Shown here: piece after piece, positions 10,706 through 34,836 of the stretch
Numbering within the stretch: the stretch's first letter is position 1
Layout of the letters: the number at the start of each line of letters is the position of its first letter
Source: a virus
Lineage: Duplodnaviria; Caudoviricetes
Direction: 5' to 3' (one strand)
Length of the DNA: 64,000 nt
Virus record (IMG/VR): IMGVR_UViG_3300021431_000075
Span: 576,001-640,000 of that record
Translations under genes and position numbers: made by a program
The notes under the pieces: generated by a model
What the model was told of the DNA's origin: nothing
Database searches by the model: none
The model's input: only the letters and a program-made list of their open reading frames with translations

Positions 10706-12457
10706 TTAAACTATTAATCTTTTCATTTCAGATAGATAAAACTTAAAAACTTTATCTTCTCCGGCTTGTGATTGGTGTTTGCCGTCATATGTATAAAGTC
10801 CATAACGTTTAGAATATCCATTATTCAACACTCCGTTATTGGTTGCTTCTTCATAAGTGCTTATCTGACCAGTCGAATCTTTAATAAAGTTGTATATCGG
10901 ATTTGTTCTTGACAAGTTAGTTCTGTCATTTGCAACACCCGGATTTCCATCATTGTAATATGGCTGGCATGGTTCAGTGAACGGAGAGAAACCACAATAA
11001 CGCTCTCCATCTATTATCTGAATGCACATGCGTTTGCATACATCTATTATAACATCATTCACTCGTTTAGCACTTTCACCATTCATATTACCCAATCTTT
11101 GAAATACAGTTCCGACAACAATATATGCAGTCGGATATTGTCTCTTGAGATATTCAAGATAGTATCTCATGCAAGCATATGTAGTCGTGGCGCTTTCAAG
11201 TTCTTTATAATTATATGTAGAGAATGCATCAGAAGCGGTTCCAATATCTTCTGTGTTACTAATGTCATTTCCACCAAGTTGAATGATAATTATATCAGGT
11301 TCTATATTTTCTGACTCAAAACTGTTTATCTGAGCGCCTAAACAATTTGTAAGTGTTTGGTCTTGATACTTATTTCTCCATGTAGCACCACCATTCGCAT
11401 AGTTTCTAAAAGTGTCTATTTCCAATTCTTCAGCAAGACGTTGTGCCCATTTGGTATTTCCGGTAGCGGTTGAAGAATCACCAAACACAATCATTGTTTT
11501 CCCTGATGTCGGCAAAGAATGTTTTAACGATTCGATTTTGTCATTCACTTCTGTGATTTTTGAATTAGTATATTCAATCGGATTCGATGTACGTTTCCAT
11601 AACGCTTTTGACAAAGATGTCCAAAGTGAGTTGAATATCAATGTGTCAAAAGAACCATCACATTCTATTGTTTCTGTTACAATTTCGGAACTTGTGCTTG
11701 AACCAATTTCTATAATTATATCATTCTTCACTTTTGCATATAGTTTTCCAGTTGAACCTCCTTGACCTGTTATTATGAACACATCTCCGATTGAAAAATC
11801 AGTTACTATTAAATATCTTCTTGTAGTTTTTGATGTATCAGGTGTAATTTCGGACAAACGATCACCGACATTTGTCTGAATCATTCCTACATTATTTGCA
11901 AAATCATCTTTGAAGTCAATGTCTATGTTTCCAGAAATGCTTGCTTTTATATTTTGCAATTCTTCTGTTATGATGTCTTTATATGGTCTGTAACTTTTAT
12001 GGATGATATTCAAATCTGCAGTTCTGCTGTTGAATATCAAAGTGTCAAATGTGCCATCGCAATAAACTTCAATCGTAGATAAAGAACTATTGCCTTCTGC
12101 ATATATGATAATGTCATCTTTTGCTTTCGCAACTAATTTTCCTGTTACACCTCCAGCACCTGTGATGATAAAAACATCTCCAGAAACAAAATCACTTGTT
12201 ATATAATAAGACCTGTTTGTTGATTCTTGGACAGTCTGCTCAGAAACTTTTCCATCAATTGGCGTTGGAAATATTCCATGTATGAATCTATTTTTAATAT
12301 CTTCATCATTTCTGTTCAGCAATAATGATTGTATAGTATTGGTTATAGTTGCTTGTGTTACGCTGCCGTCCGTGTTATAACCAAGTTCATTATATAAATT
12401 ATCCTTGATGTCATAAACAACACCTTTGACTCTTATTTTAGTTACATTATTACTCAT
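10706..12457 (-). CDS. Inner cassette 1: fibre-like protein with SGNH hydrolase domain
   Basis: Start reassigned to MSNNVTKIRVKG by paralogy; FGDSS, NGGA, QLGGND, DGKH blocks. Confidence 0.75.
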   Translation of the reverse strand: MSNNVTKIRVKGVVYDIKDNLYNELGYNTDGSVTQATITNTIQSLLLNRNDEDIKNRFIHGIFPTPIDGKVSEQTVQESTNRSYYITSDFVSGDVFIITGAGGVTGKLVAKAKDDIIIYAEGNSSLSTIEVYCDGTFDTLIFNSRTADLNIIHKSYRPYKDIITEELQNIKASISGNIDIDFKDDFANNVGMIQTNVGDRLSEITPDTSKTTRRYLIVTDFSIGDVFIITGQGGSTGKLYAKVKNDIIIEIGSSTSSEIVTETIECDGSFDTLIFNSLWTSLSKALWKRTSNPIEYTNSKITEVNDKIESLKHSLPTSGKTMIVFGDSSTATGNTKWAQRLAEELEIDTFRNYANGGATWRNKYQDQTLTNCLGAQINSFESENIEPDIIIIQLGGNDISNTEDIGTASDAFSTYNYKELESATTTYACMRYYLEYLKRQYPTAYIVVGTVFQRLGNMNGESAKRVNDVIIDVCKRMCIQIIDGERYCGFSPFTEPCQPYYNDGNPGVANDRTNLSRTNPIYNFIKDSTGQISTYEEATNNGVLNNGYSKRYGLYTYDGKHQSQAGEDKVFKFYLSEMKRLIV

Positions 12458-12504
12458 TGATTGCAAAATGATTACTTTTAGTATTAAAATTACAAAACTG
12501 CGAG

Positions 12505-12518
12505 GTTTCTTATTCAAG
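12505..12518 (-). repeat. Inner-family site S1 (one mismatch: CTTGAATAAGAAAC)
   Basis: 13/14 match to CCTGAATAAGAAAC; variant base at 12517. Confidence 0.7.
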
Positions 12519-12599
12519 CGAGTTTGCTACAGCATAGAACTACTTACAATTCTCTAATGCACAGAAACTTACACCAACTAATTGAAAGAGTAGAACTTA

Positions 12600-12613
12600 C
12601 CTGAATAAGAAAC
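12600..12613 (+). repeat. Inner-family site S2
   Basis: Exact CCTGAATAAGAAAC preceded by GAACTTA. Confidence 0.8.
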
Positions 12614-12660
12614 GTTGGAATTTTGATATTTTAATACTAAATGTAATCATTTTGCAATCA

Positions 12661-14700
12661 ATGAGTACGAATGTAACCAAGATGAGAGTCAAGGGTGTTG
12701 TGTACAATCTTAATAAATTATATGACACAACTGGTTCTAATACAGACGGAAGTGTAACACAATCATTTTTTACAAGAAAGTTATCAGGAAAGAAAATAAG
12801 CATACCAGATACTGCAGATAATAGGTATTTGGTATCATCGACTGCAAAGTGGACTAATTCAAACTATTCAATTCTAATAGATGTCGTTTCTTTTCGTGGA
12901 AATAAAATAATCATCAATAATGTAATCGTTACAGGAACGAAATATGCATTCTTGATTGATAGTGATGAAACTTCTGTCACTTTGTGTAATGGAACTTCTA
13001 TCTCTGATTATACAAATTTCACTGCATTGACGATTCCAAATGATGCTAACTACTTATATCTTTATCTTGGAAACAATGTTCCGACTTATATGCCTGCTGT
13101 GTTTGTATATGGCACTGAAGAAGGTATTGAATACAGATTGACAAAAATAGAAAATGATGTTTATCAAATATCTGGCGAGACAGCAGAAATCACCAACTAT
13201 ACAAACAAATATATTATGTTATCAAGAGGAAGTTGGTTAGATGCACCGAATGAAAACTCTCATTGTGTCATAGTTGATGTTTCGAAGCAACGTAGCAATA
13301 AGATTAAAACCAACATCGGCGTTCAGTATGCGTTTATATCTGTTGACAATGGACAAAAAGTTATATATTGCAAAGATGTCAACGACACTGACTTACAAGG
13401 TTCTATAACATTAAATTCATTTTATACTATTCCAGATGATGCTATAGAATTTTATGTGTTTTATACAGGAGACACGATTCCAACTTTTGAATTTGAAACG
13501 CCGATAAAAGAAGGCATCAATCAGAAAATTATTGGTATTGAATCTGAATTAACAACCATTCAGCAAAATATAAATTCAGTTAAAGATAAAGTCAACGGTC
13601 GCATTCTTGAAATTCCAAATGCCGCTGACAATATATATTGTGGTTTAACATCGGGCAAATGGATGAGTGGAAATTATTCAATATTGCTTGACGTTTCCAA
13701 GTTCAGAGGCGAACAGATAAAGGCATCACAAGGCAACCAATGGGCATTTATGTTATCAGACGGCGGTCATGCCGTTGGTGGTATATGTGTATTTTGTAAA
13801 AATTCTTCAAACGAAGACATAAAGGGAACATCATTCGATAAGAACACATGGTATGACATTCCGTTGGATGCAAATTACTTTTATTTATATTTAAGCAATA
13901 ATCCATCTACTGTTCCAACTATAGAAATCACAGGAGAAGTTTACGGATTAGACAATATCATAGAAAATATCGACGCGATTTCATCTTCAACTATTATAAC
14001 AAAAGGAAAGAAGATAGCTTGGTTTGGTGATAGCCTAAGTCAACTTATGGAATTGCCTCATCTTGTTGAAAAAAGAATAGGTCAGACTGTGTATGATTGT
14101 AGTTTTGCAGGAGCGCCAATATATGGTTCCGGTTCAAACACAGACAATTATTATGATACCGGTTTCTGTTCTCTTGTATCGCAAATTGTAGCAAATGATT
14201 TCACACCGTTGCAAACTGCTCTTGACAATCAATTAAGCCAGGGACAAATAACACAAGATAGTTATAACAAGAAAATGATAAACTACAACATCTTGTCAAA
14301 TATTGATTTTAGTGAAATAGATAAGATTGTTGTATTTGCAGGAACAAATGATAAAGTTTATTCAACATTAAACATAGAGCCGTTGAAAACAGGTTTGAGA
14401 AATGCATTGCAATCGCTTTTCACAAATAAACGCAACATTATTGTTTATGGAATATTGCCACCATATAGAACAGATTGGGATGAGACATCTAACGGAACAA
14501 AAAGAACATTGTTACAAATCAATAGTGCAATTGCAGAAGTGTATTCTGAATTCGGCATTCCGTATCTTGATTTCTTCCATGCATGCTGCACCAATCAATA
14601 TAACTATTTGCAATGGATGAACAATGACGGTTTGCATCAAAATGCTGCCGGAGACAAGATGTGGGCTGATAAGATAAGCGCGTGGTTGTTGAGTTGTTAA
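12661..14700 (+). CDS. Inner cassette 2: fibre-like protein with repeated beta modules and SGNH hydrolase
   Basis: MSTNVTKMRVKG start; FGDSL, FAGA, AGTND, DGLH blocks. Confidence 0.75.
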   Translation: MSTNVTKMRVKGVVYNLNKLYDTTGSNTDGSVTQSFFTRKLSGKKISIPDTADNRYLVSSTAKWTNSNYSILIDVVSFRGNKIIINNVIVTGTKYAFLIDSDETSVTLCNGTSISDYTNFTALTIPNDANYLYLYLGNNVPTYMPAVFVYGTEEGIEYRLTKIENDVYQISGETAEITNYTNKYIMLSRGSWLDAPNENSHCVIVDVSKQRSNKIKTNIGVQYAFISVDNGQKVIYCKDVNDTDLQGSITLNSFYTIPDDAIEFYVFYTGDTIPTFEFETPIKEGINQKIIGIESELTTIQQNINSVKDKVNGRILEIPNAADNIYCGLTSGKWMSGNYSILLDVSKFRGEQIKASQGNQWAFMLSDGGHAVGGICVFCKNSSNEDIKGTSFDKNTWYDIPLDANYFYLYLSNNPSTVPTIEITGEVYGLDNIIENIDAISSSTIITKGKKIAWFGDSLSQLMELPHLVEKRIGQTVYDCSFAGAPIYGSGSNTDNYYDTGFCSLVSQIVANDFTPLQTALDNQLSQGQITQDSYNKKMINYNILSNIDFSEIDKIVVFAGTNDKVYSTLNIEPLKTGLRNALQSLFTNKRNIIVYGILPPYRTDWDETSNGTKRTLLQINSAIAEVYSEFGIPYLDFFHACCTNQYNYLQWMNNDGLHQNAAGDKMWADKISAWLLSC

Positions 14701-14729
14701 AAACTAAATAAACTATTCAATAAAAAGAT

Positions 14730-14756
14730 AATGAGCAACTATTTTAGTTGCTCATT
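14730..14756. terminator. Bidirectional terminator
   Basis: AATGAGCAACTA-TTT-TAGTTGCTCATT between convergent cassettes. Confidence 0.75.
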
Positions 14757-14768
14757 TTATCTTCAATT

Positions 14769-15545
14769 TTAATTATGCTCTATATGGAAATAAGTGTCTA
14801 TGTTTGATTCATTCAAAACAAATGTTACATCAACTGTTTGCGCTGCACTTCCATAAGCAGCCATGTTCAAAGCGAAACCGCCGCCTGTTGATGGAAGATA
14901 ACTTGACAAGTCGATAACTGTTTCTACTGTTGCACTACCTTTCCATTGCGAATCTCTTGAAATTTCTGTCAAATCATTTCCGGTTGCATAACAAACTCTG
15001 ACTTTATATCCGGGCGCTACATAAATCGTATAGTTGTTATCACTAACTGCTGTCAAGCATTTGGTAGTAGTTCCTTCAACCGTATCATACCATCCATATA
15101 TCTTGTTGTAATAAGTATCTGTTGAAGTATAAACTTTGAATTTTTTATCCGTTCCCCAACTACCGGTTACTGAAACGATATTGTGTTCTTCATAGAATGA
15201 AACATGTTCTTCTACTGCAATTGTCTTAGTGGCAGAAATCAATGAATTATAAACAGACGTTGCACGGATAACAATACTTTGCGCACTTCTATTCATATCA
15301 ATCGTCAAAACGCCATAACTGTTGATAGACGCGATTTCGCTTCCTTCTACAATGCTCCATTCGACGTCGGTTTCTTCCGTGTTGGCAGGATTGTAAACTA
15401 TACTATATTCAACGCTTGTCGTGTTGCTTGATATAGTTGAAGGTCCATCAATGCTTATGCTTTCAACACGACCTGCCAAGAAAGTTACTTGTCCCAAGTT
15501 ATTATTTGAGAAATCCAAATCGGTCACTTTTATCGCGATACCCAT
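14769..15545 (-). CDS. Cassette 3 partner protein with Ig-like (Big_2-type) domain
   Basis: MGIAIKVTDLDFS N-terminus; YNPANTEETDVEWSIVEGSEIASINSYGVLT. Confidence 0.65.
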   Translation of the reverse strand: MGIAIKVTDLDFSNNNLGQVTFLAGRVESISIDGPSTISSNTTSVEYSIVYNPANTEETDVEWSIVEGSEIASINSYGVLTIDMNRSAQSIVIRATSVYNSLISATKTIAVEEHVSFYEEHNIVSVTGSWGTDKKFKVYTSTDTYYNKIYGWYDTVEGTTTKCLTAVSDNNYTIYVAPGYKVRVCYATGNDLTEISRDSQWKGSATVETVIDLSSYLPSTGGGFALNMAAYGSAAQTVDVTFVLNESNIDTYFHIEHN

Positions 15546-15564
15546 AATTGTTTCTTATTTTGAT

Positions 15565-16905
15565 TTATAAAATTGTTGTTTTGGTATAAGGAGTCTTGTA
15601 TGCATGCTCGGATGCACTCTTTGCAGAAGTTAATGCAGAAGAAGTGATTGTTCCGAATGATGATGTTTGTGGATATACATTCGGGTCTGTGTTTGAAGTT
15701 GACGAATCACTAAGAGCAAAAACGTTTGTTCCCCATATGGGTTTCCAATCTATTTCCGCAAGCGGTTTCATATCTCCGAATATTCTAAACAATGACAAAT
15801 AGAGAACATAAGAGCCGATTAATCTACCAATGCCGTCTTCCATATGTGCTCCGTCTGATGTAATATGACCAGCCGAACCATAAGCATCAAGTTCCTGATT
15901 CGTTCTTCCGTTTTGAATAGCGGTTCCGGAAGGAACTATGAAATCAACGATGCCGTTGGAAACCAGCGTTTGACAGATTGAACACATCGTCCCCCACATC
16001 GTATCGCCATATGTAATCTCTCCTTCTGTTGATTTTTTCGGATTCGTCAAAACATAGCCCCAAATTGGCTTATAACCGATATAACCATTAACAAGAGACG
16101 TTAATGTCTGCAGACCGGTTCCTTCATTGTTTATGATTGTGGTTTCACGGTCGCTCAGGTCTGATGCCTGATGCGTCATGATTATATTCCACTTATTGCC
16201 GTTGTCAAGAGCATTTTTAATCGTAGTGTTCGCGCTTCCGCTCGAAGTCCAATAGCCATTAGTGCTTTTGTATTCGAAATAATAATATGGCGTTTCATTA
16301 TTGAATCTGTTAATGTGTCCTTCAATATTCATCCCAGACAAATATAACACACCGATTATAAGAGTAATTCCGCTATTTGCTTCTATTAGACGTGGAAGAT
16401 ATACGCAGTTGTCGATGCTGAATGAATTACCGATGAAGAGAATCTTTATTTCCTTTGCTGAACTTCCGCTAATAATCGGAACATCATCAACCAGAGCACA
16501 AGACAAACCATCTTCGTCATACTTCATTCCGATGTTGCCATCTGCATCAACGACATAAAAACCATGTTCCATCACTTTCACACAATAAGGCATGGACATC
16601 TTGACGATGTCAAGCAGGGACGTTTTGAAATGAGTGCTCAACTTAGCAACATCGAATCCGTTCTCGTCATATTTCATGCCGACTTTTCCATTATTGTCTG
16701 TAACTGTGAAACCTTCTTCTTCTGTTATGCTTATTGATGAGAAACTGGATTCAACATCATTGACAAGATCGATAACATTGTCAAAACATTCAGTTATTGC
16801 AGACTGTGTCATTCCGCCATCTGTATTAGAACCGGTCGTGTCATATAACTTATTAAGGTCATAAACAACACCTTTGACTCTCACCTTGGTTACATTCGTA
16901 CCCAT
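15565..16905 (-). CDS. Inner cassette 3: fibre-like protein with SGNH-like (DUF4886-type) domain
   Basis: Start reassigned to MGTNVTKVRVKG; ILFIGNSFS, IVPSGTAIQN, DGAH. Confidence 0.7.
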   Translation of the reverse strand: MGTNVTKVRVKGVVYDLNKLYDTTGSNTDGGMTQSAITECFDNVIDLVNDVESSFSSISITEEEGFTVTDNNGKVGMKYDENGFDVAKLSTHFKTSLLDIVKMSMPYCVKVMEHGFYVVDADGNIGMKYDEDGLSCALVDDVPIISGSSAKEIKILFIGNSFSIDNCVYLPRLIEANSGITLIIGVLYLSGMNIEGHINRFNNETPYYYFEYKSTNGYWTSSGSANTTIKNALDNGNKWNIIMTHQASDLSDRETTIINNEGTGLQTLTSLVNGYIGYKPIWGYVLTNPKKSTEGEITYGDTMWGTMCSICQTLVSNGIVDFIVPSGTAIQNGRTNQELDAYGSAGHITSDGAHMEDGIGRLIGSYVLYLSLFRIFGDMKPLAEIDWKPIWGTNVFALSDSSTSNTDPNVYPQTSSFGTITSSALTSAKSASEHAYKTPYTKTTIL

Positions 16906-16952
16906 TGATTGTAAAATGCTTACTTTTAGTATTAAAATTACAAAACTGCGAG

Positions 16953-16966
16953 GTTTCTTATTCAGG
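16953..16966 (-). repeat. Inner-family site S3
   Basis: Exact reverse complement of CCTGAATAAGAAAC. Confidence 0.8.
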
Positions 16967-17047
16967 CGTGTTTGATGCGGCATATAACTACTTACAATTC
17001 TCTAATGCACAGAAACTTACACTAACTAAGGGAAAGAGTAGAACTTA
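16967..17047 (+). repeat. 81-bp spacer repeated between back-to-back sites
   Basis: Identical (reverse complement) to 32218-32298; about 8 mismatches to 12519-12599. Confidence 0.85.
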
Positions 17048-17061
17048 CCTGAATAAGAAAC
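17048..17061 (+). repeat. Inner-family site S4
   Basis: Exact CCTGAATAAGAAAC. Confidence 0.8.
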
Positions 17062-17103
17062 GATGTTTTTGAACACTTATATAGTAAAATTAGACATCAA
17101 CTA

Positions 17104-20085
17104 ATGAGCACTAACGTAACCAAGATGAGAGTTAAGGGAGTTGTTTATACTCTCAATGGAAAGTTATATAATTCTACCGGTTCGAACACAGACGGTAGCA
17201 TGACGCAAGCTGTTATTACATCTGAATTGACAGATGCTAAAGATATGGCAGAGTCTGCTCTCGCTATTGCTGAACAGGTTCGTGAAGAAGGAACGACAAC
17301 TATTGAAGGAAATGTGACGAACAACCCTGATGAAGAAGACTTGACCACTGTTATCAATGCACAGACGAATCTTGGTGAACTCAAACTCAAGAACAGAGCT
17401 TATGTTCCTGTTGAAAATTCAAAAGGCTATGTCATTCTCCGAAAGAATAATAATTTTTCATCTCAACTAACACAAACCAACACTGTTTATGAGATACGAT
17501 ATAATTTTGATTTGAATGGTGGAATAGTTGAAATTCCAGAAAACTGTACATTAAAATTTAATGGTGGTTCTATCTCCAATGGAACACTTGTTGGTTCTGA
17601 AACATATATTGATGCGATTGATGAAAATATTTTAATACAAATAACAATTGGTGGAACTTGGTCAAATGAGATAATAACAGACAAATGGTTTAATGATGCA
17701 AATATATTAAACATTAATGCTATTATGCGTGAAGATGTATATCAGCATATTTATATGACTAAAGATTATATTTGCAATGCACTTGAAAACACTGGTTATT
17801 TAATTCCATTAAGCAATACCTATATTCATTTAATCGGTTCAATTACAAGCAATCTAACAATTACAAATCATAGATTGATATTCATATATACAAATCCTAC
17901 ATTTGAAAGTTTAAAAAATATAACTATTGATGGCGAACGAGTTGGAAAAATAAACGGTAATCGAAGTCTTATTCCAATTAGTGAAGAAGGAGCTTTACAA
18001 TCAAATGGAAAATACAAACATACAGAAAACGGAATAGGTATCGCAATACGTGGAAATATAGATGGTGTTACAATTAAGAATCTTGAAATTTATGAATGTC
18101 ATTGTGATGGTATTTATGCAGCATCTGGAAAAAACATTATTATACAAGATTGTTATATTCATGGTTGTATCAGACAAGGAATCTCTATTTGTTCTGATGT
18201 GTCATCTGTTACAAATTCGGAAAATGTTTTGGTAAAAGATTGTCGAATAGAAAATATTGTAGATTATGAGAACAACGGTTACGTTATTGAATCCGGACCG
18301 GGTGCTGCTATTGATATAGAACCGAACAGAAATGGTGGTTTTTGTAAAAATATATCAATAGAAAATATTACATTAAACAACTGTGTAAAAGGTATTCAAT
18401 TGGATGCATCACGCTCTGTAGCAACTGGAGAAAGTTTTGTTAGCAATGTAAGAGTATGTAACATTAAAGCAAGCAATGTATCAAGTTATCTATTAAGTAC
18501 ATATTCTAAGGCGGAAAACATAACAATTGAGAATATTACAGTTGAACACGTGAAGTATGAAAAAGATGATAATGCTTCATCTGGTTTATTCTTTATGTGT
18601 ATGTATGCTAAAAATATATTGCTTAATGATGTTGATGCAGTTGGGATAGGTAACGGATGTGTAATAAACGGTTCAACAGATATCTTGATAACGAATAGTA
18701 CAATAAGTTGCATTCGATTATTCTTCAGTGATTCAACAGATAATGAAAATGTAGAATTCAAAAATTGTAGAATTGATGCAAATAATATCAGCAATTCTCA
18801 TCAAGCAATTAGCGGAATAAATTTCTCATTAAATTATTTTAATATAATTTCTACTGACGGCTTCAACACATGGTTGTCCAATACCATATTTAAAGATAAT
18901 TATATTACAGGTTCAAACATTAGATTCGGTGAAAGCAATACAAGTAATGTGTTGAAAAACATTATTTTTGAGAACAATGAATTCAATATTACAAGAAATG
19001 CCCAAATTATTGTTTCTGCTGCCGATGTTCTTTTTGCAAATAATACATTCTTTTGTAATAATAATGCAAATGTTAAAGTTATAGTTAGAGGAATTGTAAA
19101 TAATGCTAATATTCGATTCATAGATAATCAACTTATTGATTATGTAAATAATTATTCAGATTTGATATATGATGGAAATCTCGGTTCATTGTATATAATA
19201 ACTATTGATGGAAAAATATATGATAATGGTTCTTGGAATTATACAAACGGAGATGCCATTATGATAAAACGTGGGTTGCTTGAAAACATACCTGATATAG
19301 AATCAGGAAATGACGGTGTTTCATATTATGCTACCGATATTCAAAAGAATTGCTACATTCAACAAAGAAATGACAAATTCTTATGGGCAGATAGTGATGG
19401 TTATCCTGTGTTCATTTACAATTATGAAGGAAGTGCCAATGTATTACATATTATTGAAAAACAAGGTCCATTGTCAGACAAACCAATATGTGGAAAAGTA
19501 GGAATGCGGTATTTTGAAACTACAAATAACCAACCTATTTATATAAAGAGCGGTACAGTTCCTGCATATGACATCACATTATCATTTGTTGACAATCCAA
19601 CTTATACCGGTTCTATTAATGAAGGTTATAGTGGTGGAAATTTTGTATTTACGTTTGAGAATGTAAAAAAGAGAATTGCTTTTCAAAAAACAAATAATGT
19701 TGGAACTATATTAACAGAAATATTTAACGCATTAAATCCATATTTTAACATTACAGTAGATACAGAAAACAACAAATTTACAATAATTGGAAATTTTATA
19801 GGTTCACATGTTCCACAAATATCTGGAGTATATATATATTCTACATATCCATTAAAATTGAGTGCTTCAAGAAGTGCTATAACTCGTGGAAGTCTTATTT
19901 GGGTTGATGAAGAAGGAGTAGATGTAACGAACGTCTCTACTGTCAAGGGAACTACTGTTCAGAGAGAAGCATTGACTCTTGCCGCTACTAACGAAGGTCT
20001 GAGGTACTATGACACTACTCTTAAGAAGTACGTTCTCTGGAACGGAACACAATGGACAAATCTTGATGGAACAGCATTGTCTTAA
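17104..20085 (+). CDS. Inner cassette 4: tailspike-like right-handed beta-helix (pectin-lyase-like) protein
   Basis: MSTNVTKMRVKG start; Asn/Ile-rich beta-helix repeats (DGIYAASGKNIIIQDCYIHGCIRQGISI, AAIDIEPN). Confidence 0.7.
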   Translation: MSTNVTKMRVKGVVYTLNGKLYNSTGSNTDGSMTQAVITSELTDAKDMAESALAIAEQVREEGTTTIEGNVTNNPDEEDLTTVINAQTNLGELKLKNRAYVPVENSKGYVILRKNNNFSSQLTQTNTVYEIRYNFDLNGGIVEIPENCTLKFNGGSISNGTLVGSETYIDAIDENILIQITIGGTWSNEIITDKWFNDANILNINAIMREDVYQHIYMTKDYICNALENTGYLIPLSNTYIHLIGSITSNLTITNHRLIFIYTNPTFESLKNITIDGERVGKINGNRSLIPISEEGALQSNGKYKHTENGIGIAIRGNIDGVTIKNLEIYECHCDGIYAASGKNIIIQDCYIHGCIRQGISICSDVSSVTNSENVLVKDCRIENIVDYENNGYVIESGPGAAIDIEPNRNGGFCKNISIENITLNNCVKGIQLDASRSVATGESFVSNVRVCNIKASNVSSYLLSTYSKAENITIENITVEHVKYEKDDNASSGLFFMCMYAKNILLNDVDAVGIGNGCVINGSTDILITNSTISCIRLFFSDSTDNENVEFKNCRIDANNISNSHQAISGINFSLNYFNIISTDGFNTWLSNTIFKDNYITGSNIRFGESNTSNVLKNIIFENNEFNITRNAQIIVSAADVLFANNTFFCNNNANVKVIVRGIVNNANIRFIDNQLIDYVNNYSDLIYDGNLGSLYIITIDGKIYDNGSWNYTNGDAIMIKRGLLENIPDIESGNDGVSYYATDIQKNCYIQQRNDKFLWADSDGYPVFIYNYEGSANVLHIIEKQGPLSDKPICGKVGMRYFETTNNQPIYIKSGTVPAYDITLSFVDNPTYTGSINEGYSGGNFVFTFENVKKRIAFQKTNNVGTILTEIFNALNPYFNITVDTENNKFTIIGNFIGSHVPQISGVYIYSTYPLKLSASRSAITRGSLIWVDEEGVDVTNVSTVKGTTVQREALTLAATNEGLRYYDTTLKKYVLWNGTQWTNLDGTALS

Positions 20086-25772: not shown

Positions 25773-25801
25773 CGTTTCTTATTCAGGTAAGTTTTGTTCT
25801 T
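25773..25801 (-). repeat. Inner-family site S5 (left arm of promoter switch)
   Basis: 29-bp inverted repeat with 26161-26189, 1 mismatch. Confidence 0.85.
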
Positions 25802-26160
25802 TCCTTTCCGTCTTTGAAAACTGCTCGTTCTTTCCTTAAAAATGTTTTTTTATTTTTCAAGTCAAGAACTTCATCGAAAACGATTTTACTATTTATCTTG
25901 ATTTGACGCTTTCTTGTTATTCTGTTTTTGCTAATCAGATAAAAAGAAACATCCATTTCGATTGAGAGTTCTCAAATGCTGACAGTCACTTGTCATGACT
26001 AATCAGCCAAAGAAACACTTTTATTTTCATTATTTATCTTTGCATTTTGCGAGACCATTCAAAACGCTTTTCAGGTTTATTAGCACAGAACAGCTGCTGG
26101 ACTGCGATTTCTTGAAGTTAAGAAATCTTAATAAAAACACGTAACGCATTATTAATATTG
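25802..26160 (-). promoter_or_regulatory. Putative invertible promoter segment of the inner array
   Basis: Non-coding; GATAAATA on minus strand at 25890-25897 and 26031-26038; 26013-26038 matches the protease promoter/leader 50341-50365 except for one inserted base. Confidence 0.7.
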
Positions 26161-26189
26161 AAGAACAAAACGTACCTGAATAAGAAACG
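26161..26189 (+). repeat. Inner-family site S6 (right arm of promoter switch)
   Basis: AAGAACAAAACGTACCTGAATAAGAAACG. Confidence 0.85.
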
Positions 26190-26229: not shown

Positions 26230-27768
26230 ATGAGTATGGATATAGGCAAGATAAGAGTAAAGGGAATTGTTTATAATCTCAAAGATAATCTATATGACAC
26301 GCTTGGAGACCACACTGACGGAAGCATGACTCAGGCAGCAATAACCAGCAATTTTGATGAGATTACTTCTGGCATTGCATCAAAAGCTGATGTTCAGAAC
26401 GACATCAATGCCGATTTTGACATAGCTGATGATAATAACCACTCTATTGTACGTTTCACTGACGGACATATCCAGACGCAGAACTTTGATAGCCATGATG
26501 TAAACAAATTAAAACAGAACGTTGGCTTAACAAAATATCAAGAGTTTTCTGACGAGAGTGATTATTATGTCGGAAACATCGTTCTTCATGACGGCTTGCT
26601 TTATAAGTTCACATCAAACCATACAGCAGGCTCATGGGACTCATCAGAAGTTGAAGAAACTGACATTACTGACAACATAGAAAAATCTACTGATGTTATC
26701 AATTCTTCATATGATTTTGATATTGCTGATGAAAACGGTCTTTCTATTCTAAGAGTATCAAACGGATACTTGAAAACAAAGAATTTTGACAGCGAGAACA
26801 TCGACACAGAAGTATCTCAAAAGACCGATGAGTATCTCCAGTATCTTCGTGGAGGTTCCCCATCTACTATCATAACAGGAATTCCTTCCAATGCAGACAT
26901 AGCAATTAATGACACAATCAAACAAATTCTTGCCACGTGTCCATATGCCGATATCATCCTCATAGCAAATCCTTCAACCAGACGCAACAAACAGCGTTTC
27001 ATAAAGAGGCGTGCATATATCGAAGAACTGAAAGCATTTGCAGATTTCTATTCATTTGGTTTCATCAATTTAAGAGATGCTGGCATATCAAGACCGATGG
27101 TAACGGACACGTCTTATTATACAACTGACGGAACTCACACAAACGATTTGGGAAGCGAGAAACTATTCAATTACATATACGGATTTCTAACACAACGTTA
27201 TAACGGAGAAGAAAATATATCATCAAAGAAAATACTTGTGATGGGAGATTCTTCTTGCGCTCATCAGAATCCAAGTAGCTCCTCGCCGGACGGATTCTTC
27301 TCTTGGAGTACATTGTTGATGAAAAAGTCCAATAGAAGATATGAACTGTTTGATTCTTCAAAATCTTATAATATCGGCGATGTGGTTAGACGTGAAGTGG
27401 AATACACATTATCGAACAACAAAACGGTTTCCATTCCGTATCTATACGAGTTCGTTAACAATCACAGCGGTTCTTGGACTCAAAATGATGTCAAAGTCGT
27501 TAAGAAAGATGTGTATTTGGCAGCAGTCGGCGGTTCTGGATGGAGTGCTGTAGCAGAGACTGGATACACGTCTTCGGACAGAGCAGTTTCTGTCCAGTTC
27601 AATGACTGGAAAGCAACAAAGACATTAGACCCGGTTACGCAGCAAGTGAATCCGGAGGATATAGACATCATTATCATAGGAACTGGCGGAAACGAGTTGA
27701 ACAAATTCAAACTCGATTATTCATCAACAATGAAGTATTTGTGTAATGATGAAACTATTGTTTATTAA
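26230..27768 (+). CDS. Inner cassette 6: fibre-like protein with apparently circularly permuted SGNH domain and two small CBM-like modules
   Basis: IGKIRVKGIVYNL start; DGTH block precedes MGDSS, VGGSG and GTGGNE. Confidence 0.65.
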   Translation: MSMDIGKIRVKGIVYNLKDNLYDTLGDHTDGSMTQAAITSNFDEITSGIASKADVQNDINADFDIADDNNHSIVRFTDGHIQTQNFDSHDVNKLKQNVGLTKYQEFSDESDYYVGNIVLHDGLLYKFTSNHTAGSWDSSEVEETDITDNIEKSTDVINSSYDFDIADENGLSILRVSNGYLKTKNFDSENIDTEVSQKTDEYLQYLRGGSPSTIITGIPSNADIAINDTIKQILATCPYADIILIANPSTRRNKQRFIKRRAYIEELKAFADFYSFGFINLRDAGISRPMVTDTSYYTTDGTHTNDLGSEKLFNYIYGFLTQRYNGEENISSKKILVMGDSSCAHQNPSSSSPDGFFSWSTLLMKKSNRRYELFDSSKSYNIGDVVRREVEYTLSNNKTVSIPYLYEFVNNHSGSWTQNDVKVVKKDVYLAAVGGSGWSAVAETGYTSSDRAVSVQFNDWKATKTLDPVTQQVNPEDIDIIIIGTGGNELNKFKLDYSSTMKYLCNDETIVY

Positions 27769-27790: not shown

Positions 27791-28342
27791 ATGGGAAAAG
27801 CGTTAATTATCAAAGGTGCTGATTTTTCTGCACACTCAATAGGTCCAATTCAAAGAATCGTTCAAATGGAATTTGAGCAGTCAAACATTATGTACAGACA
27901 GAGTGACTGCGGTGTTTATCCAAAACCGTCTGCGCAAGACCAAGTAGTTCTTCCGAAACGATGCAGAACAACAAATGGTACATTGATAGAAGTTGCACCA
28001 AACCAGACCATCACCATCAGCGGTTTGAAAGATCTATTTTATCGAATATTCGAATATCAGGCTTATACAAATGGAGCCGATGAATACAAAACAAATTATG
28101 CATTCACTGGAATAAACTATGGAACTTGGACTGACAATGTTTCAAATTGCTTAACTCCATATGTTTCCAGTTCTACAGATTCGAATATTGCATCAGGCTC
28201 AAGCGTGAACACAATAACTTATACAAATACACATGAAATGACAGTATATATTGGAATGCGTGTTGGCTGGAATGTTGACAGCGGAAAGAACGACACTAAC
28301 ATCTTGCCTGAGGAAATATCAGTGTTCGTTGAATATGATTAA
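27791..28342 (+). CDS. Cassette 6 partner protein
   Basis: N-terminus MGKALIIKGADFSAHSI resembles the micro-ORFs. Confidence 0.6.
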   Translation: MGKALIIKGADFSAHSIGPIQRIVQMEFEQSNIMYRQSDCGVYPKPSAQDQVVLPKRCRTTNGTLIEVAPNQTITISGLKDLFYRIFEYQAYTNGADEYKTNYAFTGINYGTWTDNVSNCLTPYVSSSTDSNIASGSSVNTITYTNTHEMTVYIGMRVGWNVDSGKNDTNILPEEISVFVEYD

Positions 28343-28363: not shown

Positions 28364-28395
28364 AAAGTTCGTCAAAATAATTCTTGACGAACTTT
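28364..28395. terminator. Bidirectional terminator
   Basis: AAAGTTCGTCAA...TTGACGAACTTT 12-bp stem. Confidence 0.75.
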
Positions 28396-28409: not shown

Positions 28410-29354
28410 TTATGTTTTGTGTCTATTGACATAATCTTCATCAAGCAACCAATCTGGAATTTCTTCTTTATGTGTGATTTCCTTTCCATCTGCGTCGTAT
28501 AGTTTAGAAAACATTGTTAATACTGATACTGAATTTGGCGTATAGAGATTTGATATAGCTTTGATTGTACTTTCTGCTGATAAACCATTTGTAATTGAAT
28601 CATCGACAATAAGGACGTTTGATGAATTGAGTTCGTCTGCATATATGTTTTTGAACTGCTCATCCAACTTGATAGTGTCAAGAACGGTCTTTCTGAGAAT
28701 CATATCTGTAATAAGATGATATTTAAATGTTCCGGCTCCGTTTGATTCGATATCCATATCATCTAAATATTCCATCAATTTATCATAAGCTATATCATAC
28801 TTACCTCGTTTTGTCCAGAACTTATAGAAGTATGACTCTTTGTCCAGAGCCATATTTTCAATTTCTGTTGTGTCCAGTTTAACAAGTCCGTTAGTGATGA
28901 ACGTCGATATTCCAACTTCATCTGAAAGATTTTGAATCATGCTCATAATCTTCTTGTTTATTTTACTGGATGTCGGAACCATAACGGCTGTATCGAATTC
29001 ATTCTTATGCTCGCGCAGCCATCGTCTTAGGATATGCTCAAACGTTCTCCAGAACTGTTTTTCAGAATCGACGTTTTCAAATTTCCAACCTCGTTCTCCT
29101 TTAAGAGAATATATGACAGGATTTGAATCTCCTGTTCTTTTTGCTTTTGGATTGTCCGGATTCTTAATTTGCATTCTCCTAAATATAGAATAAACATCGA
29201 TGTCTCTGTTCAAGACAACAGAATGAATGACAGACTTGGTTGGTTCGCCACTAAGGTCTGTGTTGAGAATGTTGTTGTGTCTTGGATTAAAACGCAACTT
29301 ACGTCCAGATAAGATGTCAAATCCTTCGTTTATATTATGTTCAATATAACTCAT
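28410..29354 (-). CDS. Phosphoribosyltransferase-fold protein
   Basis: PRPP-binding-like loop VLIVDDSITNGLS; VMVPTSS; upstream TACTTTTG box at 29383-29390. Confidence 0.65.
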   Translation of the reverse strand: MSYIEHNINEGFDILSGRKLRFNPRHNNILNTDLSGEPTKSVIHSVVLNRDIDVYSIFRRMQIKNPDNPKAKRTGDSNPVIYSLKGERGWKFENVDSEKQFWRTFEHILRRWLREHKNEFDTAVMVPTSSKINKKIMSMIQNLSDEVGISTFITNGLVKLDTTEIENMALDKESYFYKFWTKRGKYDIAYDKLMEYLDDMDIESNGAGTFKYHLITDMILRKTVLDTIKLDEQFKNIYADELNSSNVLIVDDSITNGLSAESTIKAISNLYTPNSVSVLTMFSKLYDADGKEITHKEEIPDWLLDEDYVNRHKT

Positions 29355-29540
29355 ATAATTTTACAATTTAATTTATTTTTTGCAAAAGTACGGCTTTTTT
29401 TTTAATTAGCCGTAGTTTTCACAAATAAAATTGCAAAATCACCCCAATTATATAATGATGTATAAAAACATAATCAAATTATGAAACTATCATCCAGTCT
29501 TGCAAGTGCTTTTAATAATTTGTTAATCTTTTCCATTGCG

Positions 29541-32156
29541 TTATGAATTTTTAAGTACATATTCACCGTATCTGTATAACTGTACTCTTAACGTATAATC
29601 ACCAATAGCAAAAACATCATCACCATAGTTTATCCTACTATGGTTTGATGTTATATGAGTGCCCGGTACTGCATTGTCACCTCCAAACATAATGGATGAA
29701 CATATTTCTATTGTGCATGCAAATACAGCACCTTGTTCATTGAAATATTTTGTTGTTGTTCCATTACCTGTTGTTGATGCCACTCTGTTTATAGCACCTT
29801 TATAATACTCGTCTGTTGTATCACCAAAATACTCCTCACCAAGTTCCTTCATAAATGTATATACACAATCACTACAAGCATTTCTTGTAAGAAGTATTTG
29901 ATCTGAATTACCAATATGAGTGTAAAAATGATATACTGTCCATAAATCCCAATCGTAATTATGATGATCTATGACAAAATCAGGATTTATTACTTCTTTC
30001 CATGCCATTATCATTTGTGTCTCTGCTTCACTCCCCGCATAAGGTCCTGTATTGTTACTACCTGCTGTTTCATCAGCTACCCATCCATTAAAAGGGAAAT
30101 TACGATTGATGTTAACACCATTTGCATTAACTCTCTGATTGTGATACTGACCATATCCATTAACACAAGGAATGAAATAAATATCAAACGCATTCAAGAA
30201 TTGTACTAAATTTGGCTCATTTGCATGACAAAGAGAATATGCCAATATGTATGTATTTACTGGACCCGCTTTTTCATTACCATGCAAGGCTGACACAATC
30301 AGCAATTTCTTTTTTGTAGTATCGTTTGGTTTTCTTATAAATTTGTATATATAAGTATTGTATGAAGGAGTTGCCAAATAATCACCTGATGCAACATTAT
30401 TAAGTTCGGCATAGGATGGATTTTGAAGATTGACAGCTGTATATGCGTTCTCTTTTGATACATAATCTGGAAATGCTGCGACTAAAGCATCAAATCCATT
30501 TTGCACCTTATCATGTATTGTATTATCATCGTCCAATCTTCTATTATTTGAGTTTTTCTGCCATATTGTTTCTACAATACTTGAAACATCGCGCAATTTA
30601 TGGTCAATTATAAATGTTGGGTAATCAGCTGATGTTATTTTTATATTTGCAATTCTATTCGATAGTTCTTCTAAAGCCAAGGAATTCTTTATCTCTTTTA
30701 ATTCTGCAACAGTTGCAGGGGTATCTTCTGTACCTTTTTGAACAGTAATCCTTACCGCATATTCACCACTACAAATATAATTTCTTGATTTTACTTGAGA
30801 ATAGTTAACAAAAGCAAGCGTTTCCTTGTTGTATAACAATGCCCATCTCACTCTATATCCAACAGGCATTGTTATTTTCTTTGAACCATAAATGAAATTA
30901 CTTCGCAAAAGATAATTACTATCAACATCTTTTCCTACTACATTAATACCACCTCTTTCAAATAATATCAAATTATTGTCAAATGGGGCATTAGTCACAT
31001 TCTCTGCATAGTCGGCTTCAAGTGAGTCTAATCTATCTGTGAAATCAAGAACACGTCTTTTTATTTCCTCTATCGAGGTTTCTATCTTATATGATTGATT
31101 CCTATATACATTAAAGATGACATAACCATCATCAGGGGCAATCAATTCAAGAAGAACGACTTCGAGATTTGCATTTGCATGGCTTACAATCTCATTATCA
31201 GTATCAACAAAGCACCACAATCTTGCGTTTGCACCTCCCTTTCCTGTTATACGAAATTTATCACCTTCTTTACATTCAAGAACAATATAATTAAGGCTTT
31301 GGCTTGTAGTCGGAGTGATAACTATCTCTGTGCCTATTTCTGATGATGTATTGACTTGCCCTGACTTTGCTTCATCTGATACATCAAAATACAATGAATC
31401 TTGCAAATCCTCCACATCATCATTCACTTTCTCCAATGAAAGATTTTGTTTCAAGTCATAAACTGTAATATCTGTGGCATCGTTGTCATTCTTCTTAATT
31501 ACAATTCTTGCAACCTTACCTGATATTTCAGTAATGATGAATGTATTGGAGTTTGATTTTGAACCATCATAACTTGAAAAAGAAAAATCATCTATATTGT
31601 AATATACAATATATTGACAAACAAACCCCGTAGGAAGTTTCAAGGTATAAGTGCCACTGATATAACTCTTTGATCTCAATCTTTTAGAATTCGTTGTTTC
31701 TTTACCTGAAACATCAATACCACCTTGCTCAAAGAGAATCGACTCACATTTTAATTTTGGAAGTTCATCATCTATATATTTCGTGTATGATATAAAAGAA
31801 TAATTTGTGTCATCATAATAATACTGCTTGTTCTCAAATACATAGTTGGCACCATCCTTGTAAGGCACTTCCATAAATGTGCTTGTACTCAAATCACCCG
31901 TGTAATCTGTGCATTTATATATCTTTCTTTGTGTTGTGTTGTAATAGTATTGCCCTACCGCCGTCACATTACTATAAATCTTACTACTTGCCGAGATAGA
32001 TTGCAATACTATTTGTTTTGAATCTAACTTGAAGATTTCTTCTGATGCTGCTTTCTGAGTTAAGCAGCCGTCTGTATTGTCACCAAGTTCATCATATAAC
32101 TTATTAAGATTGTACACAACACCCTTAACTCTCATCTTGGTTACATTCGTACTCAT
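29541..32156 (-). CDS. Inner cassette 7: fibre-like protein with M14 zinc carboxypeptidase domain
   Basis: Start reassigned to MSTNVTKMRVKG; LHGNE, RVNANGVNINRNF, SEAETQ, IDHH motifs. Confidence 0.75.
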   Translation of the reverse strand: MSTNVTKMRVKGVVYNLNKLYDELGDNTDGCLTQKAASEEIFKLDSKQIVLQSISASSKIYSNVTAVGQYYYNTTQRKIYKCTDYTGDLSTSTFMEVPYKDGANYVFENKQYYYDDTNYSFISYTKYIDDELPKLKCESILFEQGGIDVSGKETTNSKRLRSKSYISGTYTLKLPTGFVCQYIVYYNIDDFSFSSYDGSKSNSNTFIITEISGKVARIVIKKNDNDATDITVYDLKQNLSLEKVNDDVEDLQDSLYFDVSDEAKSGQVNTSSEIGTEIVITPTTSQSLNYIVLECKEGDKFRITGKGGANARLWCFVDTDNEIVSHANANLEVVLLELIAPDDGYVIFNVYRNQSYKIETSIEEIKRRVLDFTDRLDSLEADYAENVTNAPFDNNLILFERGGINVVGKDVDSNYLLRSNFIYGSKKITMPVGYRVRWALLYNKETLAFVNYSQVKSRNYICSGEYAVRITVQKGTEDTPATVAELKEIKNSLALEELSNRIANIKITSADYPTFIIDHKLRDVSSIVETIWQKNSNNRRLDDDNTIHDKVQNGFDALVAAFPDYVSKENAYTAVNLQNPSYAELNNVASGDYLATPSYNTYIYKFIRKPNDTTKKKLLIVSALHGNEKAGPVNTYILAYSLCHANEPNLVQFLNAFDIYFIPCVNGYGQYHNQRVNANGVNINRNFPFNGWVADETAGSNNTGPYAGSEAETQMIMAWKEVINPDFVIDHHNYDWDLWTVYHFYTHIGNSDQILLTRNACSDCVYTFMKELGEEYFGDTTDEYYKGAINRVASTTGNGTTTKYFNEQGAVFACTIEICSSIMFGGDNAVPGTHITSNHSRINYGDDVFAIGDYTLRVQLYRYGEYVLKNS

Positions 32157-32203
32157 CGATTGCAAAATGATTATATTTAGTATTAAAATATCAAAAATCC
32201 AAC

Positions 32204-32217
32204 GTTTCTTATTCAGG
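32204..32217 (-). repeat. Inner-family site S7
   Basis: Exact reverse complement of CCTGAATAAGAAAC. Confidence 0.8.
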
Positions 32218-32298
32218 TAAGTTCTACTCTTTCCCTTAGTTAGTGTAAGTTTCTGTGCATTAGAGAATTGTAAGTAGTTATATGCCGCATCAAACACG

Positions 32299-32312
32299 CC
32301 TGAATAAGAAAC
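32299..32312 (+). repeat. Inner-family site S8
   Basis: Exact CCTGAATAAGAAAC. Confidence 0.8.
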
Positions 32313-32355
32313 CTTGCAGTTTTGTAATTTTAATACTAAAAGTAAGCATTTGCAA

Positions 32356-34836
32356 ATGAGCACTAACATAACCAAGATGAGAGTTAAGGGAGTCATTTAC
32401 AACCTTAATGGAAAGTTATATGACACAACTGGTTCTAATACAGATGGTTCAATAACACAATCTGCATTAACTAACAAGTTCAATGCAATTGAAGAAGATA
32501 TTGATGGTGCTGGCGGATTTGTTGAACTTGATTATAGCATAGAACCTCTTTCATCTCAAACTCGCGTTGGATTCATAAACTCAAGCAATCAGTGGAAAAC
32601 TGGAACCGCATCTTCAAATAACTTCATCATCGTAGATATAAGAAACTACCGTGGCTGGAAACTCACTACTCTTCGTTCAGCAGATCAGTTCGCATGGTTG
32701 ACAAGAGACGACAATCCATTTACTGATGGAGCCACACCTGCGTTTGTTTCTGGAACCGGAAGATTCGGCACTGGTGAATTGACAGATGAAATTATACCGG
32801 ATGCAGCATCATATTTGTATGTTTATATAGCATCCGGTTCATCCAAACCAATGCTTACTTTTACAAAAGAACACATAAACGGAATAAAGGACAAGATAAG
32901 CATTCTTGAAGATTCTGCAATAACAAAAGACATATTGTTTGAAAAAGCAAAGGGAAAGAATCTCATTGATGAAAGTAATGTTATTTTTGATGCAAGACCT
33001 GGCGGCACAAATGGAAAAATACAGGCAGATTCAACTCTCAACATAGCAATGACGCAGCTTATAGAAGTTACTCCGGGTGTTACATATTCATTAAGCGGTC
33101 AGTTTTATGGAAATGGATACGGGGCATACTATGGTGAAAACGCTACAACAGAAATAGGTCAAACTGGCATTGAGATGATTTCAACAGTTCTTGCGCCTCT
33201 CGGCGATGGTCGCGTATTTACTGTTCCGAATAACAATAACATAAAGTATGTCATTATAGTTCTAAAAGCGCAAAATCATAATCAGCTTTTGGGTTCATGT
33301 CAGCTTGAACGCGGCGAAGTTCCAACTGCATATGAACCTTATACTGAAAACGACAAGATTAAAGAGGAATTTCTTCCTGAATATAGTAGTTACGAAACAA
33401 GCGATACCATGCTTGATTATTATACAGACATAACCACATTGACATATCCGAATATTAGCGACAAGTTTCCTAATTTCAGAGAACATTGGATTCTGAAAGA
33501 CAAGGACTTGGTTGTTGTTAATACAGGAACTTCATTAACTGCAAGAACAATCGAGCATTGTACAGAAAGAGAAGATGCTGCATATAGACCGCCATTGCTT
33601 CATAGCAATAACATCGCCAGTATGATTTGGGATAAGATAAAATGGGAAGGTCAAGAATACAGAAGATATGATTCGAAGACAGAACATGATGGTTCAACGA
33701 ATATGTTTACGGAAACCGGAACATTCGCAACATCATTCAACTTATCAGAATGGGATGATGGCGGTTTCAGAAACGGTTTGACAAGATATGCAAGTGGTAG
33801 TTGTTCTGTTCAATTTACAATACCCGCTGATGCTCATCAGTTTAATTTCATTTATAGAACTGATTCTGTAGGCAGCACGGCATGTACGGTTAGTGTGACA
33901 AGCGGAACGGTTCAAATATATAACGGAAGCGGATGGATTGAAGCAAACGGTTTTAGTTTCAGTATGCGAGAAAGCGCAGTAACTACATTGCCGAGCGTAA
34001 CATACAAGAATCCATACACCGGTTCTAATGAAACAATAGAAAATGTTCAAGTAAAGGGAAATACCACGTATCAGAAGAGGCTTAAGTTTAGAGCGGTTAG
34101 CAATTCTGCAGCAAAGACTATAACAATAAGTAGTTCTTCTGGAAGATTTATGTACTGGGGAGTTGAATATTCTCCGAGAGATTATATGATTACTTATATA
34201 AATGCTGCACGTGGAGAGCATTCTTCAAGACTTGACAACCCGGATGGGACATTGAAACTTCTAATAAATTATCAAGATAATGAAATATGGGATTTCAATC
34301 CAGATTTAATATGCGCGGAAGATCCTATTCATAATTACGGCGGAGCAAAACTCGGTGAATATCATACAAAAACATTCTTTGCACAAGCAAGCGAAAACTT
34401 TTTCTTTGCAGATAATGGAATAAGCATGCTCTCAAGATTAAACACTCTTGGGAAGAATGTCCCTGAATTTATCATTCATAACTCATCTGTATGTAGGAAT
34501 TTTTTGACAGAAAACAATGTTTCACTTCTGGTTAATGGAGACTTGCCGGTAGTTCACATAAAAGATGGTTCAACTAATAAGATTGGATGGACCGCGCTTG
34601 ATGCACAAAGTAGCATTTATCTTTATATGCTTGAAAATCATTCAAACATCATCTATATAAACGCGTTTAGAAACTGGATTGAAGCGTGCAACAAATGCTA
34701 TGGAAATCTTGAGAATGCTACAACAGGAACCGGAAAGAACGGAAACACTTTCTCTGATGAAGGCTCTCATTATAATGATACTGGATGCAAAGTTATGGCA
34801 AGAGTGATATTGCCGGTTTTTGATTTTATCGTTTAG
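32356..34836 (+). CDS. Inner cassette 8: fibre-like protein with divergent SGNH-like domain
   Basis: Start reassigned to MSTNITKMRVKG; TGTSLT, INAARG, EGSHYNDTG blocks. Confidence 0.65.
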   Translation: MSTNITKMRVKGVIYNLNGKLYDTTGSNTDGSITQSALTNKFNAIEEDIDGAGGFVELDYSIEPLSSQTRVGFINSSNQWKTGTASSNNFIIVDIRNYRGWKLTTLRSADQFAWLTRDDNPFTDGATPAFVSGTGRFGTGELTDEIIPDAASYLYVYIASGSSKPMLTFTKEHINGIKDKISILEDSAITKDILFEKAKGKNLIDESNVIFDARPGGTNGKIQADSTLNIAMTQLIEVTPGVTYSLSGQFYGNGYGAYYGENATTEIGQTGIEMISTVLAPLGDGRVFTVPNNNNIKYVIIVLKAQNHNQLLGSCQLERGEVPTAYEPYTENDKIKEEFLPEYSSYETSDTMLDYYTDITTLTYPNISDKFPNFREHWILKDKDLVVVNTGTSLTARTIEHCTEREDAAYRPPLLHSNNIASMIWDKIKWEGQEYRRYDSKTEHDGSTNMFTETGTFATSFNLSEWDDGGFRNGLTRYASGSCSVQFTIPADAHQFNFIYRTDSVGSTACTVSVTSGTVQIYNGSGWIEANGFSFSMRESAVTTLPSVTYKNPYTGSNETIENVQVKGNTTYQKRLKFRAVSNSAAKTITISSSSGRFMYWGVEYSPRDYMITYINAARGEHSSRLDNPDGTLKLLINYQDNEIWDFNPDLICAEDPIHNYGGAKLGEYHTKTFFAQASENFFFADNGISMLSRLNTLGKNVPEFIIHNSSVCRNFLTENNVSLLVNGDLPVVHIKDGSTNKIGWTALDAQSSIYLYMLENHSNIIYINAFRNWIEACNKCYGNLENATTGTGKNGNTFSDEGSHYNDTGCKVMARVILPVFDFIV

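Follow-up and report, generated by a model that had tools for sequence, protein, structure and literature searches.

Exchange of small intergenic modules, one with putative promoter boxes, among paralogous tail-fibre genes of a huge Caudoviricetes phage

The stretch of DNA analysed here (the window, 64,000 nt) comprises bases 576001–640000 of IMGVR_UViG_3300021431_000075, a 673,114-bp virus record (Duplodnaviria; Caudoviricetes) with direct terminal repeats. At 10706–34836 it holds an array of genes, a number of which are read divergently from four intergenic regions, and a tail-tube-like gene lies inside this array (Table 1). Eight of the array genes (A, B, D, E, G, H, K and L) begin with a common N-terminus of ~40 aa (M-S-x-N-V-T-K-x-R-V-K-G...N-T-D-G-x-x-T-Q), beyond which their products diverge completely. 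A tblastn search of the whole genome with this anchor found exactly 14 carriers, namely the eight array genes (the inner genes) and six genes that adjoin sites of a second kind, CCTGTTTAGAAAC (the outer set). The products of E and G match PDB chain 7qoj_J, named tail fiber protein gp22 (E=6e-10 and E=2e-10, respectively), an entry which we take to be from the crAss-like phage crAss001. These two matches, that of B to a tail-fibre family, and the SGNH, beta-helix, M14 and CBM domains found across the array indicate that the array genes are fibre-like, with homology to known virion fibre proteins.

The regions between the divergent genes contain the 14-nt word CCTGAATAAGAAAC, of which the window has eight matches at two or fewer mismatches, compared with 0.65 expected by chance; none of 100 shuffles (0/100) reached eight. 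Seven copies are exact and one (12505, − strand, reading CTTG...) carries a single mismatch, and in the whole genome the exact word is restricted to the positions of the inner array. The copies form four (−,+) pairs, each between divergent genes, and orientation alternates strictly among the inner (n=8) as among the outer (n=6) sites, with both orientations present within one locus. All inner sites lie in non-coding DNA, 31–47 nt upstream of an ATG, and over the whole genome there is one site for each anchor gene, 14 of both. Terminator-like hairpins are found at the three points where genes converge (14730–14756, 20968–20996/21037–21059 and 28364–28395). A preliminary description of this DNA, made from the letters of the window, is upheld in these respects: it had listed eight alternating sites (its coordinates agree with ours to within one base, 26175 having been given as 26176), lying outside coding sequence just upstream of KxRVKG-type starts (in our hands M-S-x-N-V-T-K-x-R-V-K-G), had placed terminators between convergent pairs, and had argued that whole genes, not C-termini, would be the units of choice.

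We refer to each inverted pair of sites as a dock and to the DNA that it encloses as a module. Docks 1, 2 and 4 contain 81-nt modules (fillers a and b), and dock 3 contains a 387-nt module, P, which is single-copy in the genome. Filler length is exactly 81 nt throughout both site sets, the outer examples being at 5521–5601 and at genome positions 566157–566237, and this constancy suggests a constraint on spacing; the inner and outer fillers are of two kinds that look distantly related. When folded as RNA, the small modules give the trivial stem of the inverted sites as their sole structure, and P gives a modest z-score of −2.7 without a clear structure. P also encloses a basic open reading frame (ORF) of 57 aa (25783–25956, − strand), with its TGA within a recombination site, and gene callers predict this ORF in several assemblies.

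Contigs of the same phage, recovered through exact-protein look-ups and spanning four assemblies, show that these modules change places. Sample labels (SHIW14, SRR8735xx) suggest that the data derive from sheep rumen. In ERZ12302814, P is located at locus 1 (L090/L101), where it is identical over 387/387 nt and joined to the locus-1 flanks exactly at the sites, and b is present in reversed orientation at locus 3 (L097) and at locus 4 (L104). S006 scaffold_1616 has P at locus 1 (L113) and b reversed at locus 3 (L096). JGI 3300002641 has P at locus 1 (L102) and holds two states of locus 3, G–P–H as in the window (L115) and G–a–H (L098). At locus 3, 81-nt modules are found in both orientations, but as different modules, a forward and b reversed. 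Each of the six new inner junctions maps within the 14-nt word, immediately beyond which the sequence is specific to the locus. In L098, the variant base of the left site of module a has been retained (GTTTCTTATTCAAG) and locus-specific sequence begins directly after GAAAC, so that the crossover must have taken place within the 12 nt TGAATAAGAAAC. The copies of CCTGAATAAGAAAC are functional recombination sites. Module positions are essentially the sole differences between the assemblies, with no substitutions outside modules and leaders across ~33 kb (roughly 4706–37354); this lack of flanking substitutions implies that modules relocate faster than point mutations accumulate, and argues for frequent, recent switching. 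Block order and orientation are identical throughout, and an inverted gene block was found in none of the contigs recovered from the four assemblies. The preliminary description had taken each pair of opposite sites to bound a self-contained invertible unit; its recombination sites stand, its inverted gene blocks are not what the contigs show, and the segments that move are those of 81 and 387 nt.

Other searches for the array returned little. A megablast search of the phage collection gave no match to it, and a 35-mer from an 81-nt module, together with the paired-site pattern, had no match among viral and metagenome contigs, where near-identical records were apparently masked; a 17-mer scan gave 28 single matches that were judged to be due to chance. 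In a diverged strain (L092, from Logan SRR14586331), the tube gene (94% DNA identity) is surrounded by other fibre genes, and an inner site has been kept exactly despite a flanking E-like gene of only 79% identity; this strain retains both the sites and a module length of 81 nt.

P differs from the fillers in carrying copies of the box GATAAATA. The genome has 90 copies of this box. Non-coding DNA, 14% of the total, holds 76 of them, and 49/90 are located in sense 26–87 nt upstream of the ATG of a long ORF (mode 35 nt), compared with eight in antisense orientation; the consensus extends to WW-GATAAATA-N4-A. By its distribution, GATAAATA behaves as the phage's own promoter box. A second upstream motif, the Bacteroidota-type TAnnTTTGCA, precedes 41 genes in sense versus eight in antisense, and suggests a second promoter class and a host belonging to the Bacteroidota. 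In intergenic DNA between 2 and 42 kb of the window, the relaxed word ATAAATA occurs at seven places only (by the tube gene, in P and in the large outer module; Table 1), and is absent there from every fixed leader of a fibre gene and from modules a and b. P appears to be the inner array's sole promoter cassette. As it is placed in the window, its boxes would drive G, and at locus 1, in the same orientation, they would drive A. A sigma-70 scan, uninformative in DNA this AT-rich, found 126 matches where 109 were expected, and the full Bacteroidota pattern TTTG-N17-23-TAnnTTTG had no match in any module.

The outer set, CCTGTTTAGAAAC, comprises six sites that form three docks and adjoin six further anchor paralogues. 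Two of the pairs are located in the window (5508/5602 and 37480/39230) and the third at genome positions 566144/566238, ~9.8 kb before the window starts. Outer and inner sites have the arm AACTTACCTG and the end GAAAC in common and differ in the centre, which is TTTA in the outer sites (CCTG-TTTA-GAAAC) and AATAA in the inner ones; that the two sets are orthogonal we infer only from the absence of mixed junctions. The 1.7-kb outer module (REC) was found flipped at the dock outside the window in S006, ERZ12302814 and JGI 3300002641 (L157, L158, L159), with both of its junctions on a single contig in L159, and the filler of that dock was then found adjoining a 441-aa gene. The preliminary description had included neither this heterospecific set, nor the unique promoter-box module P, nor a recombinase on a mobile module.

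REC encodes the single tyrosine recombinase of the whole genome, a 330-aa protein that matches the phrog_1 integrase family (E=5e-15) and PF13102 (above cut-off) and in which R, HxxR and Y motifs can be recognized by eye. At least 159 homologues were found, of which two were examined closely. In L144, from a related phage (84% identity), the homologue is flanked by inverted sites of this type, CCTG(T/A)TTAGAAAC, between divergent fibre genes. In L164, from a different phage (57% identity), the homologue is flanked by a 22-nt inverted repeat containing CCTG(T/A)TTAGAAAC, again between divergent paralogues. The same type of site thus flanks the recombinase gene in three phages, and this co-conservation of recombinase family and site type favours the tyrosine recombinase as the acting enzyme; most likely, it catalyses recombination at both site sets. 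The distant homologue P0033 (41% identity) was found in an unrelated context and was set aside. Within the recombinase module of L144, a TnpB (IS605 OrfB) gene has been inserted (L144:8693–9946).

Table 1. Positions of genes, sites, modules and promoter-box words at the locus (window coordinates unless marked as genome)
Feature	Position	Strand	Description
Gene A	10706–12457	−	Fibre paralogue; SGNH/GDSL esterase domain
Gene B	12661–14700	+	Fibre paralogue; SGNH/GDSL domain; matches phrog_5240 (tail fiber)
Gene C	14769–15545	−	Accessory gene downstream of D; shared N-terminus MGIAI..DFS
Gene D	15565–16905	−	Fibre paralogue; DUF4886
Gene E	17104–20085	+	Right-handed beta-helix fibre; PDB 7qoj_J match
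Tail-tube-like gene	20304–20915	+	Inside array; own GATAAATA box at 20217
Gene G	21093–25742	−	1549-aa fibre; downstream of the boxes of P in the window
Gene H	26230–27768	+	Fibre paralogue; CBM5/12, weak SGNH
Gene I	27791–28342	+	Accessory gene downstream of H
Gene K	29541–32156	−	Fibre paralogue; M14 carboxypeptidase domain
Gene L	32356–34836	+	Fibre paralogue
Inner site 1L	12505–12518	−	One mismatch; variant base moves along with module a
Inner site 1R	12600–12613	+	Word search
Inner site 2L	16953–16966	−	Word search
Inner site 2R	17048–17061	+	Word search
Inner site 3L	25774–25787	−	Word search
Inner site 3R	26175–26188	+	Word search
Inner site 4L	32204–32217	−	Word search
Inner site 4R	32299–32312	+	Word search
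Module a	12519–12599		81-nt filler without promoter box; at locus 3 in L098
Module b	16967–17047		81-nt filler
Module b, second copy	32218–32298		Exact reverse complement of 16967–17047
Module P	25788–26174	−	387 nt; two GATAAATA boxes on − strand (25890–25897 and 26031–26038), pointing leftward into G
Outer locus O1	5508–5614		Two CCTGTTTAGAAAC sites around 81-nt filler
Outer dock outside window	genome 566144–566250		CCTGTTTAGAAAC pair around 81-nt filler
Outer large module (REC)	37480–39242	−	Two CCTGTTTAGAAAC sites; tyrosine recombinase gene 37595–38587 (−); + strand GATAAATA boxes at 38769 and 39133
ATAAATA, tube gene			Two upstream, one just downstream
ATAAATA, module P	25897 and 26038	−	
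ATAAATA, 1.7-kb outer module	38769 and 39133	+	

Our current working hypothesis, which we consider probable as a whole, is that the phage encodes a switch whose recombination sites are the eight 14-nt words, arranged as four docks, each of them an inverted site pair between two divergent, promoterless tail-fibre/depolymerase genes sharing the 40-aa anchor. Each dock would hold one module, either a filler (a, b and b) or P with its two outward GATAAATA boxes. Paired crossovers at the flanking sites would swap modules between docks while the genes stay unmoved, and crossovers would probably flip the modules too. Where P lies and which way it points would then determine which of the eight fibre genes is transcribed, one gene being expressed at a time, G in the state represented by the window and A in three other assemblies; in this way P probably changes which host-recognition protein the virus makes. 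The outer six-site set would control its six further paralogues likewise, and the tyrosine recombinase of the large outer module would act on both sets. As to the route of exchange, the outer move swaps two modules and turns both round, which equals two nested inversions or an antiparallel double crossover. In the inner moves, P and a retain their orientation, for which four inversions, three successive swaps or paired crossovers between sites of like orientation would be needed. Crossovers of this last kind could plausibly take place between genome copies during replication.

A classical shufflon would also make use of such sites: the recombinase would invert blocks of genes towards a fixed expression point, and the module differences would be by-products of nested inversions. 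Alternating orientation would let any (−,+) or (+,−) pair invert, an outer swap plus flip can be written as two nested inversions, and the identical copies of b are present in both orientations. We nevertheless regard it as unlikely, since the gene blocks are uninverted in every contig from the four assemblies, the orientation-keeping inner moves would take four inversions, and no fixed promoter box was found outside the modules. It is also conceivable that the sites recombine but that the modules are non-regulatory, P being a passenger insertion and many fibres being made per virion from unrecognized promoters in the leaders. The fixed leaders are conserved and could hold an undetected promoter class, and several fibre types are possible in a large phage; yet paired outward GATAAATA boxes are present in both large modules and in no leader, and the sites and the 81-nt length have been held across the diverged strain L092, that length recurring in both site sets. 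This explanation seems to us quite improbable.

Two further alternatives were considered. If the 14-mer were a conserved regulatory element, for example an operator, the module differences could have arisen by homologous recombination or gene conversion between paralogous 5′ regions, whose flanks are 75–90% alike over 100–300 nt. Short conversion-like patches are indeed present in the outer leaders: in L101 the bases at 5637 and 5640 match the paralogous leader at 39.2 kb, and in ERZ12302814 the leader of the 441-aa gene (L104:60–215) is a mosaic resembling the leader of a 690-aa gene. These patches show that some homologous exchange goes on alongside. As an account of the modules themselves, such conversion is very improbable, because the six novel inner junctions all lie within the word with locus-specific sequence right outside, and because the recombinase gene is flanked by the same site type in three phages. 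An artefact, in which repeats mislead the assemblers, is extremely improbable. Contigs often stop near sites (L091–L093, L160, L161), and repeats longer than the k-mer account for these stops; for the same reason we do not take the contig ends at sites in L160 and L161 to indicate heterogeneity. The new joins share merely 14–20 nt, three assemblies made with different pipelines (ENA, MGnify-type and JGI) have these junctions in common and contig coverages agree (26–33x), which together make misassembly unlikely.

A number of observations weigh against the switch as we have set it out. It is the location and strand preference of GATAAATA, rather than mapped starts of transcripts, that suggest a promoter role for this box; leaders from the boxes of P would be 155 or 296 nt long as against the usual ~35 nt; and the opposite strand of P has the host-type box TATCTTTGCA, so P could be bidirectional. 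P has been observed at two of the four docks and in one orientation only. The states of S006 and ERZ12302814 are P, b, b, b, in which a has been lost and one b gained; three copies of b and no a are beyond conservative recombination inside one genome and require exchange between genome copies. Moreover, the inner moves keep orientation and the outer move flips, so that no single simple mechanism covers both. As regards the enzyme, the PF00589 score of the tyrosine recombinase (24.6 bits) is below the cut-off of 27.1, and six small (~200-aa) serine recombinase genes (genome positions 76640, 86043, 119357, 198780, 308136 and 655541) remain candidates for the array. These lie at least 15 kb from the arrays, the nearest ~15 kb past the end of the window and the others more than 250 kb away; they may belong to other inversion systems.

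Several smaller features of the locus and its relatives were noted. Downstream of K, a 314-aa gene (28410–29354, − strand) has a weak phosphoribosyltransferase-like motif. The leaders of outer genes contain ORFs of 24–26 aa (MGK[IL][VL]IIKDADFEENS...) at 5680–5760 (+), ~37372–37450 (−) and 39308–39382 (+), and similar N-termini are found in the accessory genes at 8797, 14769–15545 and 27791. A related phage whose tube protein is 76% identical has the same layout, with a 79-nt module enclosed by a different inverted repeat of 13 nt, TTCATTCGGCCAT (L011:6846–7140); the right-hand paralogue there has an in-frame TAG in the conserved N-terminus, which could reflect TAG recoding or a pseudogene. 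The relatives L009, L010 and L012 have the tube gene alone in common with the window.

The closest known logic appears to be that of the vpma locus of Mycoplasma agalactiae and the vsp locus of Mycoplasma bovis (Xer1/Mbr), both of which have a single promoter, recombination sites within the 5′ leaders and their own tyrosine recombinase gene (PMC2268961). The phage locus resembles these in its family of alternative surface-protein genes with a site in each 5′ leader, in the proposed switching of whole genes, in what looks from sequence like one unique promoter, and in the tyrosine recombinase gene at the locus. In vpma and vsp, however, genes are inverted around a fixed promoter, whereas here the gene order is fixed and a small promoter cassette would change dock; the phage locus is also viral, has two heterospecific site sets and bears its recombinase on a mobile cassette. 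With the shufflon of R64/IncI plasmids (Rci, sfx) and the Rin shufflon of a Bifidobacterium prophage (PMC6109161), it has in common many short, asymmetric, alternating sites, a tyrosine recombinase and the diversification of adhesins or receptor-binding proteins; shufflons, however, join C-terminal coding segments to a constant N-terminal part, and in the phage the sites lie in non-coding DNA and the choice would be between entire genes. Invertible promoters (fimS of E. coli, the capsule promoters of Bacteroides and mpl of M. penetrans) are likewise short promoter-bearing segments between inverted repeats on which a site-specific recombinase acts, but they turn one operon on or off in place, unlike the putative promoter segment of the phage, which sits between divergent genes and relocates among docks, with promoterless fillers elsewhere. 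Mu Gin, P1 Cin and Salmonella Hin offer host-range switching through site-specific recombination, and as with hin the recombinase lies within a mobile promoter-bearing segment; they are, however, serine invertases acting on one segment with two states (Gin and Cin swap fibre C-termini), in contrast to the 14 sites, whole genes and likely tyrosine recombinase found here. Recombinase-mediated cassette exchange, which is man-made, uses heterospecific lox or FRT sites, and sets of sites with different centres do not cross-react. The phage locus resembles this laboratory method in its two-site cassettes, in the paired crossovers proposed for it and in site sets told apart by their centres, and would be its counterpart in nature. 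No such phage system is described in the full-text literature that we searched, and the locus differs from its relatives in five ways, namely in being viral, in a fixed gene order with a putative promoter cassette that changes dock, in promoterless fillers of a constant 81 nt in the other docks, in two heterospecific site sets and in a cassette-borne recombinase.

It is interesting to speculate on what such a locus offers the phage. One possible, though tentative, picture, in which we have less confidence than in the switch itself, is of two orthogonal natural cassette-exchange channels served by one recombinase on a mobile promoter cassette, with one promoter travelling among eight fibre genes and another among six, giving up to 48 host-recognition states without any change in gene order and countering the phase-variable capsules of Bacteroidota. 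If true, this would be a viral mirror of the capsule switching by promoter inversion of gut and rumen Bacteroidota. The compact recombinase and two apparently non-cross-reacting sets of 13–14-nt sites are a possible genetic tool. Between samples, assemblies of such phages are seen to differ at the modules alone, a point of importance for strain tracking and for the reading of host range from sequence. For uncultured huge phages, host range is the central question, and the locus offers a testable way in which one genome may address many host surfaces.

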